Made by a program: the position numbers and the translations under genes | In this document: positions 463 through 6,170 of the stretch, piece by piece | Numbering within the stretch: position 1 is the first letter of the stretch | How the letters are laid out: every line of letters begins with the position of its first letter | Notes under the pieces: generated by a model | What the model was told of the DNA's origin: nothing | Databases searched by the model: none | Seen by the model: only the letters and a program-made list of their open reading frames with translations | DNA from: Escherichia phage T7 | Direction: 5' to 3' (one strand) | Length of the DNA: 38,553 nt | Sequence record: MG833025.1

Positions 463-498
463 TGACTTAAAGTCTAACCTATAGGATACTTACAGCCA
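463..498 (+). promoter_or_regulatory. Host sigma70 early promoter A1
   Basis: -35 ttgact at 463-468 and -10 gatact at 485-490, at the known T7 A1 position. Confidence 0.85.
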
Positions 499-588
499 TC
501 GAGAGGGACACGGCGAATAGCCATCCCAATCGACACCGGGGTCAACCGGATAAGTAGACAGCCTGATAAGTCGCACGAAAAACAGGTA

Positions 589-626
589 TTGACAACATGA
601 AGTAACATGCAGTAAGATACAAATCG
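589..626 (+). promoter_or_regulatory. Host sigma70 early promoter A2
   Basis: -35 ttgaca at 589-594 and -10 taagat at 613-618. Confidence 0.85.
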
Positions 627-713
627 CTAGGTAACACTAGCAGCGTCAACCGGGCGCACAGTGCCTTCTAGGTGACTTAAGCGCACCACGGCACATAAGG
701 TGAAACAAAACGG

Positions 714-750
714 TTGACAACATGAAGTAAACACGGTACGATGTACCACA
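714..750 (+). promoter_or_regulatory. Host sigma70 early promoter A3
   Basis: -35 ttgaca at 714-719 and -10 tacgat at 737-742. Confidence 0.85.
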
Positions 751-1278: not shown

Positions 1279-1433
1279 TGTCTACTACCAACGTGCAATA
1301 CGGTCTGACCGCTCAAACTGTACTTTTCTATAGCGACATGGTGCGCTGTGGCTTTAACTGGTCACTCGCAATGGCACAGCTCAAAGAACTGTACGAAAAC
1401 AACAAGGCAATAGCTTTAGAATCTGCTGAGTGA
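1278..1433 (+). CDS. 0.4: Gene 0.4 small protein (51 aa)
   Basis: The ATG overlaps the 0.3 stop (taATG); [51 protein letters not shown]. It is below the ORF-track size cutoff. Confidence 0.8.
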   Translation: MSTTNVQYGLTAQTVLFYSDMVRCGFNWSLAMAQLKELYENNKAIALESAE

Positions 1434-1490
1434 TAGACTCAAGGTCGCTCCTAGCGAGTGGCCTTTTTGATTATCACTTTACTTATGAGG
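1434..1490 (+). promoter_or_regulatory. Probable RNase III processing site (R0.5-like) with the native gene 0.5 RBS
   Basis: actcaaggtcgctcctagcgagtggcc can form a hairpin like T7 RNase III sites; gaggga lies just before the ATG at 1496. Confidence 0.55.
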
Positions 1491-1495
1491 GAGTA

Positions 1496-2491
1496 ATGAG
1501 CATCGCGGCGACCCTGGAGAACGATCTGGCGCGTCTGGAAAACGAAAACGCTCGTCTCGAAAAAGACATCGCGAACCTGGAACGTGACCTGGCGAAACTG
1601 GAGCGTGAAGAAGCGTACTTCGGAGGTTCAGGTGGTAAGAACACTGGTGAAATCTCTGAGAAAGTCAAGCTGGGCACTAAGGCACTGGCTGGTCAATGGC
1701 TGGCTTACGGTGTTACTCGCAGTGTGACTAAGAGTTCAGTCATGACGCTGGCTTACGGGTCCAAAGAGTTCGGCTTCCGTCAACAAGTGCTGGAAGATAC
1801 CATTCAGCCAGCTATTGATTCCGGCAAGGGTCTGATGTTCACTCAGCCGAATCAGGCTGCTGGATACATGGCTAAGCTGATTTGGGAATCTGTGAGCGTG
1901 ACGGTGGTAGCTGCGGTTGAAGCAATGAACTGGCTTAAGTCTGCTGCTAAGCTGCTGGCTGCTGAGGTCAAAGATAAGAAGACTGGAGAGATTCTTCGCA
2001 AGCGTTGCGCTGTGCATTGGGTAACTCCTGATGGTTTCCCTGTGTGGCAGGAATACAAGAAGCCTATTCAGACGCGCTTGAACCTGATGTTCCTCGGTCA
2101 GTTCCGCTTACAGCCTACCATTAACACCAACAAAGATAGCGAGATTGATGCACACAAACAGGAGTCTGGTATCGCTCCTAACTTTGTACACAGCCAAGAC
2201 GGTAGCCACCTTCGTAAGACTGTAGTGTGGGCACACGAGAAGTACGGAATCGAATCTTTTGCACTGATTCACGACTCCTTCGGTACGATTCCGGCTGACG
2301 CTGCGAACCTGTTCAAAGCAGTGCGCGAAACTATGGTTGACACATATGAGTCTTGTGATGTACTGGCTGATTTCTACGACCAGTTCGCTGACCAGTTGCA
2401 CGAGTCTCAATTGGACAAAATGCCAGCACTTCCGGCTAAAGGTAACTTGAACCTCCGTGACATCTTAGAGTCGGACTTCGCGTTCGCGTAA
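1496..2491 (+). CDS. 1: Split T7 RNA polymerase, C-terminal fragment: Met, SYNZIP18-like coiled coil, GGSGG, Lys, polymerase residues 601-883 with apparent R632S
   Basis: Translation SIAATLENDLARLENENARLEKDIANLERDLAKLEREEAYF-GGSGG-KNTGEISEKV... runs to the polymerase C-terminus ...LRDILESDFAFA. It contains motif C (IHDSF, H811/D812) and the specificity-loop region. Confidence 0.93.
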   Translation: MSIAATLENDLARLENENARLEKDIANLERDLAKLEREEAYFGGSGGKNTGEISEKVKLGTKALAGQWLAYGVTRSVTKSSVMTLAYGSKEFGFRQQVLEDTIQPAIDSGKGLMFTQPNQAAGYMAKLIWESVSVTVVAAVEAMNWLKSAAKLLAAEVKDKKTGEILRKRCAVHWVTPDGFPVWQEYKKPIQTRLNLMFLGQFRLQPTINTNKDSEIDAHKQESGIAPNFVHSQDGSHLRKTVVWAHEKYGIESFALIHDSFGTIPADAANLFKAVRETMVDTYESCDVLADFYDQFADQLHESQLDKMPALPAKGNLNLRDILESDFAFA

Positions 2492-2510
2492 TAAAGAGGA
2501 GAAATACTAG
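2491..2510 (+). promoter_or_regulatory. Synthetic intercistronic RBS (aaagaggagaaa plus tactag spacer) after a double stop
   Basis: taataaagaggagaaatactagATG matches a standard synthetic-biology RBS part with an assembly scar; this is not native T7 sequence. Confidence 0.8.
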
Positions 2511-4463
2511 ATGAACACGATTAACATCGCTAAGAACGACTTCTCTGACATCGAACTGGCTGCTATCCCGTTCAACACTCTGGCTGACCATTACGGTGAG
2601 CGTTTAGCTCGCGAACAGTTGGCCCTTGAGCATGAGTCTTACGAGATGGGTGAAGCACGCTTCCGCAAGATGTTTGAGCGTCAACTTAAAGCTGGTGAGG
2701 TTGCGGATAACGCTGCCGCCAAGCCTCTCATCACTACCCTACTCCCTAAGATGATTGCACGCATCAACGACTGGTTTGAGGAAGTGAAAGCTAAGCGCGG
2801 CAAGCGCCCGACAGCCTTCCAGTTCCTGCAAGAAATCAAGCCGGAAGCCGTAGCGTACATCACCATTAAGACCACTCTGGCTTGCCTAACCAGTGCTGAC
2901 AATACAACCGTTCAGGCTGTAGCAAGCGCAATCGGTCGGGCCATTGAGGACGAGGCTCGCTTCGGTCGTATCCGTGACCTTGAAGCTAAGCACTTCAAGA
3001 AAAACGTTGAGGAACAACTCAACAAGCGCGTAGGGCACGTCTACAAGAAAGCATTTATGCAAGTTGTCGAGGCTGACATGCTCTCTAAGGGTCTACTCGG
3101 TGGCGAGGCGTGGTCTTCGTGGCATAAGGAAGACTCTATTCATGTAGGAGTACGCTGCATCGAGATGCTCATTGAGTCAACCGGAATGGTTAGCTTACAC
3201 CGCCAAAATGCTGGCGTAGTAGGTCAAGACTCTGAGACTATCGAACTCGCACCTGAATACGCTGAGGCTATCGCAACCCGTGCAGGTGCGCTGGCTGGCA
3301 TCTCTCCGATGTTCCAACCTTGCGTAGTTCCTCCTAAGCCGTGGACTGGCATTACTGGTGGTGGCTATTGGGCTAACGGTCGTCGTCCTCTGGCGCTGGT
3401 GCGTACTCACAGTAAGAAAGCACTGATGCGCTACGAAGACGTTTACATGCCTGAGGTGTACAAAGCGATTAACATTGCGCAAAACACCGCATGGAAAATC
3501 AACAAGAAAGTCCTAGCGGTCGCCAACGTAATCACCAAGTGGAAGCATTGTCCGGTCGAGGACATCCCTGCGATTGAGCGTGAAGAACTCCCGATGAAAC
3601 CGGAAGACATCGACATGAATCCTGAGGCTCTCACCGCGTGGAAACGTGCTGCCGCTGCTGTGTACCGCAAGGACAAGGCTCGCAAGTCTCGCCGTATCAG
3701 CCTTGAGTTCATGCTTGAGCAAGCCAATAAGTTTGCTAACCATAAGGCCATCTGGTTCCCTTACAACATGGACTGGCGCGGTCGTGTTTACGCTGTGTCA
3801 ATGTTCAACCCGCAAGGTAACGATATGACCAAAGGACTGCTTACGCTGGCGAAAGGTAAACCAATCGGTAAGGAAGGTTACTACTGGCTGAAAATCCACG
3901 GTGCAAACTGTGCGGGTGTCGACAAGGTTCCGTTCCCTGAGCGCATCAAGTTCATTGAGGAAAACCACGAGAACATCATGGCTTGCGCTAAGTCTCCACT
4001 GGAGAACACTTGGTGGGCTGAGCAAGATTCTCCGTTCTGCTTCCTTGCGTTCTGCTTTGAGTACGCTGGGGTACAGCACCACGGCCTGAGCTATAACTGC
4101 TCCCTTCCGCTGGCGTTTGACGGGTCTTGCTCTGGCATCCAGCACTTCTCCGCGATGCTCCGAGATGAGGTAGGTGGTCGCGCGGTTAACTTGCTTCCTA
4201 GTGAAACCGTTCAGGACATCTACGGGATTGTTGCTAAGAAAGTCAACGAGATTCTACAAGCAGACGCAATCAATGGGACCGATAACGAAGTAGTTACCGT
4301 GACCGATGAGAACGGAGGTTCAGGTGGTGGATCCAACGAAAAAGAAGAACTGAAATCCAAAAAAGCGGAACTGCGCAACCGTATCGAACAGCTGAAACAG
4401 AAACGTGAACAACTGAAGCAGAAAATCGCGAACCTGCGTAAAGAAATCGAAGCTTACAAATAA
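2511..4463 (+). CDS. 1: Split T7 RNA polymerase, N-terminal fragment: residues 1-601, GGSGGGS, SYNZIP17-like coiled coil
   Basis: MNTINIAKNDFSDIELAAIPFNTLADHYGERLAREQ... runs to ...NEVVTVTDEN, then GGSGGGS and NEKEELKSKKAELRNRIEQLKQKREQLKQKIANLRKEIEAYK. It contains motif A (D537). Confidence 0.93.
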   Translation: MNTINIAKNDFSDIELAAIPFNTLADHYGERLAREQLALEHESYEMGEARFRKMFERQLKAGEVADNAAAKPLITTLLPKMIARINDWFEEVKAKRGKRPTAFQFLQEIKPEAVAYITIKTTLACLTSADNTTVQAVASAIGRAIEDEARFGRIRDLEAKHFKKNVEEQLNKRVGHVYKKAFMQVVEADMLSKGLLGGEAWSSWHKEDSIHVGVRCIEMLIESTGMVSLHRQNAGVVGQDSETIELAPEYAEAIATRAGALAGISPMFQPCVVPPKPWTGITGGGYWANGRRPLALVRTHSKKALMRYEDVYMPEVYKAINIAQNTAWKINKKVLAVANVITKWKHCPVEDIPAIEREELPMKPEDIDMNPEALTAWKRAAAAVYRKDKARKSRRISLEFMLEQANKFANHKAIWFPYNMDWRGRVYAVSMFNPQGNDMTKGLLTLAKGKPIGKEGYYWLKIHGANCAGVDKVPFPERIKFIEENHENIMACAKSPLENTWWAEQDSPFCFLAFCFEYAGVQHHGLSYNCSLPLAFDGSCSGIQHFSAMLRDEVGGRAVNLLPSETVQDIYGIVAKKVNEILQADAINGTDNEVVTVTDENGGSGGGSNEKEELKSKKAELRNRIEQLKQKREQLKQKIANLRKEIEAYK

Positions 4464-4520
4464 GAGGGACAAACTCAAGGTCATTCGCAAGAGTGGCCTT
4501 TATGATTGACCTTCTTCCGG
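4464..4520 (+). promoter_or_regulatory. RNase III processing site R1.1 region
   Basis: gagggacaaactcaaggtcattcgcaagagtggcctttatgattgacc has a hairpin-capable actcaagg...gagtggcc motif like other T7 RNase III sites. Confidence 0.55.
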
Positions 4521-4521
4521 T

Positions 4522-4544
4522 TAATACGACTCACTATAGGAGAA
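4522..4544 (+). promoter_or_regulatory. T7 promoter phi1.1B
   Basis: taatacgactcactataggagaa, +1 near 4539. Confidence 0.9.
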
Positions 4545-4622
4545 CCTTAAGGTTTAACTTTAAGACCCTTAAGTGTTAATTAGAGATTTAAATTAAAGAA
4601 TTACTAAGAGAGGACTTTAAGT
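4545..4622. other. AT-rich region of the primary origin of replication
   Basis: AT-rich tract ttaaggtttaactttaag...agatttaaattaaagaattac just downstream of phi1.1B, where the T7 primary origin lies. Confidence 0.6.
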
Positions 4623-4751
4623 ATGCGTAACTTCGAAAAGATGACCAAACGTTCTAACCGTAATGCTCGTGACTTCGAGGCAACCAAAGGTCGCAAGTTG
4701 AATAAGACTAAGCGTGACCGCTCTCACAAGCGTAGCTGGGAGGGTCAGTAA
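4623..4751 (+). CDS. 1.1: Gene 1.1 small basic protein (42 aa)
   Basis: MRNFEKMTKRSNRNARDFEATKGRKLNKTKRDRSHKRSWEGQ with RBS gagagga upstream. Confidence 0.8.
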   Translation: MRNFEKMTKRSNRNARDFEATKGRKLNKTKRDRSHKRSWEGQ

Positions 4752-4752
4752 G

Positions 4753-5010
4753 ATGGGACGTTTATATAGTGGTAATCTGGCAGCATTCAAGGCAGCAACA
4801 AACAAGCTGTTCCAGTTAGACTTAGCGGTCATTTATGATGACTGGTATGATGCCTATACAAGAAAAGATTGCATACGGTTACGTATTGAGGACAGGAGTG
4901 GAAACCTGATTGATACTAGCACCTTCTACCACCACGACGAGGACGTTCTGTTCAATATGTGTACTGATTGGTTGAACCATATGTATGACCAGTTGAAGGA
5001 CTGGAAGTAA
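4753..5010 (+). CDS. 1.2: Gene 1.2, inhibitor of host dGTPase
   Basis: MGRLYSGNLAAFKAATNKLFQLDLAVIYDDWYDAY... 85 aa. Confidence 0.85.
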   Translation: MGRLYSGNLAAFKAATNKLFQLDLAVIYDDWYDAYTRKDCIRLRIEDRSGNLIDTSTFYHHDEDVLFNMCTDWLNHMYDQLKDWK

Positions 5011-5030
5011 TACGACTCAGTATAGGGACA
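5008..5030 (+). promoter_or_regulatory. T7 promoter phi1.3
   Basis: taatacgactcagtatagggaca, +1 near 5025. Confidence 0.9.
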
Positions 5031-5090
5031 ATGCTTAAGGTCGCTCTCTAGGAGTGGCCTTAGTCATTTAACCAATAGGAGATAAACATT

Positions 5091-6170
5091 ATGATGAACA
5101 TTAAGACTAACCCGTTTAAAGCCGTGTCTTTCGTAGAGTCTGCCATTAAGAAGGCTCTGGATAACGCTGGGTATCTTATCGCTGAAATCAAGTACGATGG
5201 TGTACGCGGGAACATCTGCGTAGACAATACTGCTAACAGTTACTGGCTCTCTCGTGTATCTAAAACGATTCCGGCACTGGAGCACTTAAACGGGTTTGAT
5301 GTTCGCTGGAAGCGTCTACTGAACGATGACCGTTGCTTCTACAAAGATGGCTTTATGCTTGATGGGGAACTCATGGTCAAGGGCGTAGACTTTAACACAG
5401 GGTCCGGCCTACTGCGTACCAAATGGACTGACACGAAGAACCAAGAGTTCCATGAAGAGTTATTCGTTGAACCAATCCGTAAGAAAGATAAAGTTCCCTT
5501 TAAGCTGCACACTGGACACCTTCACATAAAACTGTACGCTATCCTCCCGCTGCACATCGTGGAGTCTGGAGAAGACTGTGATGTCATGACGTTGCTCATG
5601 CAGGAACACGTTAAGAACATGCTGCCTCTGCTACAGGAATACTTCCCTGAAATCGAATGGCAAGCGGCTGAATCTTACGAGGTCTACGATATGGTAGAAC
5701 TACAGCAACTGTACGAGCAGAAGCGAGCAGAAGGCCATGAGGGTCTCATTGTGAAAGACCCGATGTGTATCTATAAGCGCGGTAAGAAATCTGGCTGGTG
5801 GAAAATGAAACCTGAGAACGAAGCTGACGGTATCATTCAGGGTCTGGTATGGGGTACAAAAGGTCTGGCTAATGAAGGTAAAGTGATTGGTTTTGAGGTG
5901 CTTCTTGAGAGTGGTCGTTTAGTTAACGCCACGAATATCTCTCGCGCCTTAATGGATGAGTTCACTGAGACAGTAAAAGAGGCCACCCTAAGTCAATGGG
6001 GATTCTTTAGCCCATACGGTATTGGCGACAACGATGCTTGTACTATTAACCCTTACGATGGCTGGGCGTGTCAAATTAGCTACATGGAGGAAACACCTGA
6101 TGGCTCTTTGCGGCACCCATCGTTCGTAATGTTCCGTGGCACCGAGGACAACCCTCAAGAGAAAATGTAA
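5091..6170 (+). CDS. 1.3: ATP-dependent DNA ligase
   Basis: 359 aa with the KYDGVRG adenylation motif (lysine nucleotidyltransferase motif I). Confidence 0.95.
   Translation: MMNIKTNPFKAVSFVESAIKKALDNAGYLIAEIKYDGVRGNICVDNTANSYWLSRVSKTIPALEHLNGFDVRWKRLLNDDRCFYKDGFMLDGELMVKGVDFNTGSGLLRTKWTDTKNQEFHEELFVEPIRKKDKVPFKLHTGHLHIKLYAILPLHIVESGEDCDVMTLLMQEHVKNMLPLLQEYFPEIEWQAAESYEVYDMVELQQLYEQKRAEGHEGLIVKDPMCIYKRGKKSGWWKMKPENEADGIIQGLVWGTKGLANEGKVIGFEVLLESGRLVNATNISRALMDEFTETVKEATLSQWGFFSPYGIGDNDACTINPYDGWACQISYMEETPDGSLRHPSFVMFRGTEDNPQEKM

Follow-up and report, generated by a model that had tools for sequence, protein, structure and literature searches.

A SYNZIP17 tag on the N-terminal fragment of a split T7 RNA polymerase in an engineered phage T7 genome

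The replaced block and its surroundings

The window, meaning the whole stretch of 38,553 nucleotides that was analysed, was compared by BLAST with phage T7 (NC_001604). Its left end and everything from position 4463 onwards follow T7 with a single mismatch, and two parts of T7 gene 1 are found between them (Table 1). Terminal repeats of 160 nt are present at both window ends. From these alignments and repeats it follows that a complete T7 genome is present in the window, with one block replaced. A 2,964-nt block at 1499-4462 takes the place of T7 1499-5846, a region that comprises genes 0.5, 0.6A/B and 0.7, gene 1, and positions -17 to -2 of the promoter phi1.1A. The gene order within the block is reversed, so that the C-terminal polymerase fragment (sigma) comes first and the N-terminal fragment (the core, or alpha-beta) second. 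To the right of the block the consensus of phi1.1B begins at 4522, and that promoter is intact.

Table 1. Coordinates of the features in and around the replaced block
Feature	Window	Strand	T7 (NC_001604)	Remarks
Left T7 segment	1-1498		1-1498	one mismatch, A>T at 1467
E. coli early promoters A1, A2, A3	498..750	+		start sites 498, 626, 750; same as wild type (T7 annotation)
R0.5 RNase III hairpin	1430..1477	+		upstream of the sigma fragment; A>T at 1467 lies in the internal loop
Sigma fragment CDS	1496..2491	+		ATG 1496-1498, SYNZIP18 1499-1621, GGSGG 1622-1636, K 1637-1639
Sigma fragment CDS, polymerase part	1640-2488	+		T7 RNA polymerase residues 601-883; stop 2489-2491
3' part of gene 1	1638-2491		4969-5822	
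Spacer	2492..2510	+		19 nt; second stop codon and synthetic ribosome-binding site for the core fragment
5' part of gene 1	2506-4313		3166-4973	gene 1 codons start at 2511
T7 RNA polymerase residues 1-601 (core, or alpha-beta, fragment)	2511..4313	+		Pfam RPOL_N and first third of RNA_pol
Linker GGSGGGS	4314..4334	+		15-nt GGSGG cassette 4314-4328, then GGATCC 4329-4334 (BamHI, codes G-S)
SYNZIP17 CDS and stop	4335..4463	+		42 codons 4335-4460, TAA 4461-4463; contains the only HindIII site, 4450-4455
Right T7 segment	4463-38553		5847-39937	100% identical over 34,091 nt
Right junction	4463..4544	+		phi1.1A truncated (T7 5823-5846 deleted), then R1.1 RNase III hairpin, then intact phi1.1B

The protein encoded by the ORF at 2511-4463 has polymerase residues 1-601 in unaltered form; the polymerase sequence stops at N601, where the foreign sequence takes over. 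Only three sites in the polymerase DNA of the two fragments differ from wild type. In the sigma fragment CGT has become AGT at codon 632 (R632S), and a silent ACC>ACG at T816 abolishes a KpnI site; in the core fragment a silent GAT>GAC at D471 makes the window's only SalI site (3918). The sigma fragment has taken over the start codon and ribosome-binding site of T7 gene 0.5, which is itself deleted. The core fragment is preceded by the spacer TAAAGAGGAGAAATACTAG, in which AAAGAGGAGAAA followed by TACTAG is the BioBrick B0034 ribosome-binding site with its assembly scar.

The sigma ORF opens with M-SIAATLENDLARLENENARLEKDIANLERDLAKLEREEAYF-GGSGG-K and then continues with polymerase residues 601-883. 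Its polymerase part begins as K-N601 because the polymerase DNA of the core fragment ends with the pentamer AGAAC (T7 4969-4973) and that of the sigma fragment opens with it again, so that N601 occurs twice. MuA transposition leaves a 5-bp duplication of its target. The 'splitposon' of Segall-Shapiro was reportedly built on Mu transposition, and we take the AGAAC duplication at the split to be what MuA would leave, which is consistent with a Mu-based splitposon.

The tag, its linker and its partner

The segment 4314-4463 codes, in frame after N601, for GGSGGGS, a further 42 residues and a stop. The translation of 4293-4466 reads VTVTDEN-GGSGGGS-NEKEELKSKKAELRNRIEQLKQKREQLKQKIANLRKEIEAYK-stop; the first linker codon, GGA, starts at 4314 and the tag ORF ends with the TAA at 4461-4463. 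A sequence-only reading of this DNA had placed GGSGGGS and a peptide after polymerase residue 601 (...VTVTDEN), and on translation its coordinates and sequences prove to be exact. The 15-nt cassette GGAGGTTCAGGTGGT is common to the core-side linker and to the linker of the sigma fragment (1622-1636), the latter being without the extra G-S seen on the core side.

For both peptides the reference sequences were taken from the resource table of PMC8477956. The tag NEKEELKSKKAELRNRIEQLKQKREQLKQKIANLRKEIEAYK is identical to SYNZIP17 at 42/42 residues, and the peptide SIAATLENDLARLENENARLEKDIANLERDLAKLEREEAYF (1499-1621) on the sigma fragment is identical to SYNZIP18 at 41/41 (PMC8477956). The sequence-only reading had called the tag SYNZIP17-like and had pointed to the published SYNZIP17/18 pair as the proper comparison; the outcome goes beyond likeness for the tag and extends to its partner. 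Because all 42 residues agree with a published designed sequence, the tag, as judged from that sequence, is SYNZIP17 and not a chance feature.

The two peptides have the character of a complementary pair. By heptad assignment the d positions of SYNZIP17 are L6, L13, L20, L27, L34 and Y41, and K or R occupies 10 of its 12 e/g positions. SYNZIP18 has Leu at all d positions and D or E at 10 of 11 e/g positions. The net charges are +6 for SYNZIP17 and -5 for SYNZIP18, so the earlier description of the tag as basic and of the other peptide as acidic is borne out, both overall and at the e/g positions.

Another engineered pair that merely resembles SYNZIP17/18 (E/K coils, Fos/Jun, the GCN4 acid/base pair or a different SYNZIP pair) is highly improbable as the source of the tags. 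The top matches in a PDB sequence search are indeed coiled coils of other designs, antiparallel or acid-base, but their E-values are weak: the best is 1.5e-5, over a partial stretch, and SYNZIP1 and SYNZIP6 follow at E ~0.2-0.3. That search returned designed coiled coils of this kind only and no structure of SYNZIP17 or SYNZIP18. A different dimerisation pair is excluded because of the identities over the full length of both peptides, and the source name 'Core polymerase-SZ17', described below, also speaks against it.

In the zipper and linker segments the codons are optimised for E. coli, with CTG for 11/12 Leu, AAA for 11/12 Lys, GAA for 14/16 Glu and CGT for 7/8 Arg. These segments differ in this from T7 gene 1, where AAG and GAG are the favoured codons. 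The zipper DNA of the two segments found no match among 72,556 plasmid records, nor among 50,697 phage records in a distant-mode search. At the protein level an exact-sequence look-up at NCBI matched the 650-aa core fusion to APA32048.1, 'Core polymerase-SZ17 [Synthetic plasmid pCore]', and the two fragment proteins to AVH85521.1 and AVH85520.1, both 'RNA polymerase [Escherichia phage T7]'.

Two restriction sites lie in the tag segment. GGATCC at 4329-4334 is the sole BamHI site in the window, where 6.9 would be expected from shuffled sequences, and AAGCTT at 4450-4455 is the sole HindIII site, where 11.1 would be expected. The sequence-only reading had put both inside the linker and zipper coding sequence, at positions that are exact, and had considered them to fit a cloning design. 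This last point holds better for one site than for the other. The wild-type T7 genome has neither a BamHI nor a HindIII site, and the uniqueness of both in the window is mainly due to this and reflects foreign DNA; any foreign insert that carried them would make them unique. The opposite view, that the two sites are an incidental outcome of codon choice, is a serious contender at a little under even odds. Cloning with BamHI and HindIII is undescribed in Segall-Shapiro 2014 (PMC4299498) and in Garry 2018, and the HindIII site falls within GAA-GCT-TAC (the codons of E-A-Y), where there is no module boundary. Against it, GGATCC directly follows the shared GGSGG cassette and directly precedes the first codon of SYNZIP17, which is the signature of a BamHI junction. 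In addition, Ala is coded by GCT within the HindIII site, whereas GCG is used for 8/10 Ala codons in the two zipper segments and in the equivalent E-A-Y of SYNZIP18. The BamHI site thus looks like a discrete module at the linker/zipper boundary, very probably a cloning junction, made of the GGSGG cassette plus GGATCC, while the HindIII site may be incidental.

Comparison with published phages and parts

Every feature described for the engineered phage T7 JB 13-78 (Garry, Ellington, Molineux, Bull 2018, Virus Evol 4:vey017; GenBank MG833025) is also found in the window. JB 13-78 was made by recombining a two-fragment T7 RNA polymerase into T7-delta-1, a phage without 0.5, 0.6A, 0.6B, 0.7, gene 1 and part of phi1.1A (Garry 2018). 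From Segall-Shapiro et al. 2014 it takes both its leucine zippers and its beta-sigma breakpoint; its fragments are 19 bases apart, including an extra stop codon, with sigma 5' of alpha-beta, an order that was reversed on purpose to keep a single reading frame from being restored by simple deletion (Garry 2018). The window shares with it the extent of the T7-delta-1 deletion, the sigma fragment 5' of alpha-beta, the 19-nt spacer and the zippers on both fragments.

The point changes that arose in the published phage provide a further comparison. For four of the eight listed in Table 1 of Garry 2018 the ancestral base, with its codon, fits the window exactly: 1486 (T, intergenic), 1893 (GTG, V133 of sigma), 1929 (AAC, N145) and 4297 (ACC, T596). 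The other four lie downstream of the insert and fit only after 38 nt are added to their coordinates, upon which they read as stated (6.7 A18A, 10B E375K in the -1 frame, 17 D263N and 19 A172V). These four coordinates, 38 nt lower in the paper than in the window, and the A>T at 1467, which the paper does not discuss, are what separates the two descriptions; no difference between the window and JB 13-78 is demonstrated by them.

The polymerase parts resemble the 'resource allocator' of Segall-Shapiro 2014 (Mol Syst Biol 10:742; core 1:601-SZ17, sigma SZ18-601:883) in the break at 601, the placement of SYNZIP17 and SYNZIP18, the short flexible linkers and R632S. A T7* RNA polymerase with R632S, split at residue 601, was the enzyme used there (Segall-Shapiro et al., PMC4299498). 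Unlike the 'resource allocator', whose fragments are carried on separate plasmids with PTac or constitutive promoters, the window has both fragments in a phage genome, in reversed order and in one early transcript, with host-polymerase promoters and with T7 or synthetic ribosome-binding sites. The strings of the tag peptide and its DNA were not found in four supplementary files of Segall-Shapiro 2014.

At the level of the peptides the window does not differ from the designed SYNZIP17:SYNZIP18 pair, which is used here as fusion tags with GGSGG(GS) linkers. The pair is reportedly a designed antiparallel heterodimeric coiled coil, the work being credited to Reinke in 2010 and Thompson in 2012. 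Natural bZIP leucine zippers (bZIP_1, bZIP_2 and Myc-LZ) share with the tag the heptad Leu repeat and a weak profile similarity. In Pfam the SYNZIP17 tail scores 21.4 bits with Myc-LZ (cut-off 24.3) and 15.6 with bZIP_2 (cut-off 22.3), and its other coiled-coil matches are also sub-threshold. Unlike the natural proteins, the tag is without a basic DNA-binding region; it is designed and not a family member by descent.

All of this is best read as a T7 RNA polymerase that was split by design and whose core fragment carries, after residue 601, a GGSGG+GS linker and a SYNZIP17 tag; the window as a whole is then the genome of T7 JB 13-78, an engineered phage. A probability of about 0.97 is assigned to this reading. 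An assembly chimera, in which a T7 assembly had wrongly taken in plasmid reads with parts of the split polymerase and no such phage existed, could appeal to the core-SZ17 protein that is also on a synthetic plasmid record. It is nevertheless very unlikely because the junctions are precise and in frame and because construction and resequencing have been published. Both junctions are functional, the sigma ATG falling exactly at the start codon of gene 0.5 and the right junction at the known end of the T7-delta-1 deletion; the reversed order comes with a designed 19-nt spacer; and Garry 2018 reports building, plating and evolving the phage and mapping reads to it. A natural origin, with the tail as a coiled-coil extension at the C-terminus of a phage RNA polymerase that had split in nature (an evolved two-subunit enzyme), would be in keeping with the Pfam RNA_pol matches of both ORFs and the weak coiled-coil matches of the tail, but is effectively excluded because the tail equals a published designed peptide residue for residue, the spacer holds a synthetic ribosome-binding site and scar, the codon usage is unlike that of T7, the tail DNA is unmatched in the phage and plasmid records and NCBI labels the protein as from a synthetic plasmid, to which can be added the GGSGG cassette repeated at the DNA level and a remaining genome that is wild-type T7.

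One change outside the block deserves mention. The A>T at 1467 lies in the R0.5 hairpin, 29 nt upstream of the start codon of the sigma fragment; it was found in none of the T7 records searched and is without mention in Garry 2018. Folding of the hairpin with and without the change gave identical structure and energy, and hence no predicted effect. It is conceivable, if rather unlikely, that the change is an early compensatory mutation, fixed when the first plaque formed, and that it changes how the sigma-fragment mRNA is processed or translated. Alternatively, it is a PCR or strain polymorphism in a homology arm. The later evolved T1486G in the same leader suggests that the leader upstream of the sigma fragment was under selection.

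Proposed working of the split polymerase and its significance

Both ORFs would be transcribed from A1-A3 by the host RNA polymerase as one early transcript, before any T7 polymerase is made, because they lie in the early region downstream of these promoters and between R0.5 and R1.1. RNase III would then cut this transcript at R0.5 and R1.1. Translation of the sigma ORF would start from the ribosome-binding site of gene 0.5, and that of the core ORF from the synthetic one.

As a heterodimerisation handle of high affinity, the zipper tag would make the two halves of the polymerase bind each other with a greater effective affinity. SYNZIP17/18 form an antiparallel coiled coil with a KD of ~1 nM (PMC7441314). 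They were picked for their antiparallel binding, and zippers raised the activity of the split polymerase more than 10-fold at low expression (PMC4299498). In the window SYNZIP17 is tethered via its N-terminus and SYNZIP18 via its C-terminus; antiparallel pairing should therefore let the two linkers leave the coiled coil at one and the same end. Such pairing would bring the cut ends of the 601 surface loop close to each other and raise the local concentration of the fragments for reassembly of an active polymerase.

The tag construct is already known: it is documented as a component of an engineered phage in the literature and is not a natural discovery, and the segment 4314-4463 itself yields nothing new. 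For genome scanning its value is in the spotting of the window as a synthetic construct and not as natural biology. The biology to which it belongs has been published. The phage JB 13-78, attenuated on purpose through the splitting of its essential RNA polymerase, is viable and strongly attenuated, with an initial fitness of ~15 doublings per hour vs ~35 for wild type (Garry 2018). Also published are the use of SYNZIPs as affinity handles on split enzymes and the idea that fragmentation is a possible route to evolutionarily stable attenuation of viruses.

The split site and the polymerase DNA

Five base pairs of T7 sequence, AGAAC, occur twice in the split polymerase gene, once where the polymerase part of the core fragment (residues 1-601, fused to SYNZIP17) ends and once where that of the sigma fragment (residues 601-883, fused to SYNZIP18) begins. 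As a result of this duplication E600 is replaced by K and N601 is present twice. The split site of the polymerase was reportedly found with a Mu-based 'splitposon', and the repeat fits the 5-bp duplication of target sequence that such an element makes. Two silent changes in the polymerase DNA, at D471 and T816, probably come from a plasmid-borne T7* RNAP gene (the R632S background); the KpnI site lost at T816 is the one at 5613 in wild-type T7. In the protein database, the 90%-identity cluster of T7 RNA polymerase also includes proteins of Monkeypox virus, 278-287 aa long and named 'mRNA capping enzyme small subunit'; this is apparently a quirk of the clustering or the database and not a property of the window.

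Features in and near the engineered block, and shifted mutation sites (window coordinates)
Feature	Position	Detail
A>T change	1467	internal loop of R0.5 RNase III hairpin; sigma-fragment ATG 29 nt downstream
Gene 0.5 leader	1480-1498	TACTTATGAGGGAGTAATG; reused by sigma fragment
AGAAC, copy in sigma fragment	1638-1642	fragment start
T816	2282-2287	ACC>ACG, silent; KpnI site lost
D471	3918-3923	GAT>GAC, silent; makes genome's only SalI site
AGAAC, copy in core fragment	4309-4313	fragment end
Right junction	4461-4544	SYNZIP17 stop codon, phi1.1A remnant, R1.1 hairpin, phi1.1B
Shifted Table 1 sites	17536, 22704, 34029, 36503	

Right junction and published numbering

Promoter phi1.1A has lost positions -17 to -2 to the deletion, so that the SYNZIP17 stop codon directly adjoins the phi1.1A remnant AGAGGGACAAAC. 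Promoter phi1.1B (4522) is intact, as is the R1.1 RNase III hairpin. With the deleted region the phage has also lost two minor E. coli promoters, B and C (1514 and 3113 in wild-type T7).

The evolved mutations listed at 17498, 22666, 33991 and 36465 in Table 1 of PMC6009699 fit the window bases and codon changes only when 38 nt are added, whereas the four Table 1 positions at or below 4297 agree unshifted. The downstream numbering of that paper therefore differs from the window by 38 nt.

Upstream of the sigma fragment

At 1467 the window has T where wild-type T7 has A. This T is absent from all T7-like records in the phage collection (best identity 98.7% over 1420-1498) and is not mentioned in Garry 2018 (PMC6009699); the predicted fold and energy of the R0.5 hairpin are the same with either base. 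An evolved change in the sigma-fragment leader, T1486G, has been described (PMC6009699). It would convert TACTTATGAGGGAGTAATG to TTAGGAGGG, giving a longer Shine-Dalgarno match, which suggests selection for increased translation of the sigma fragment.
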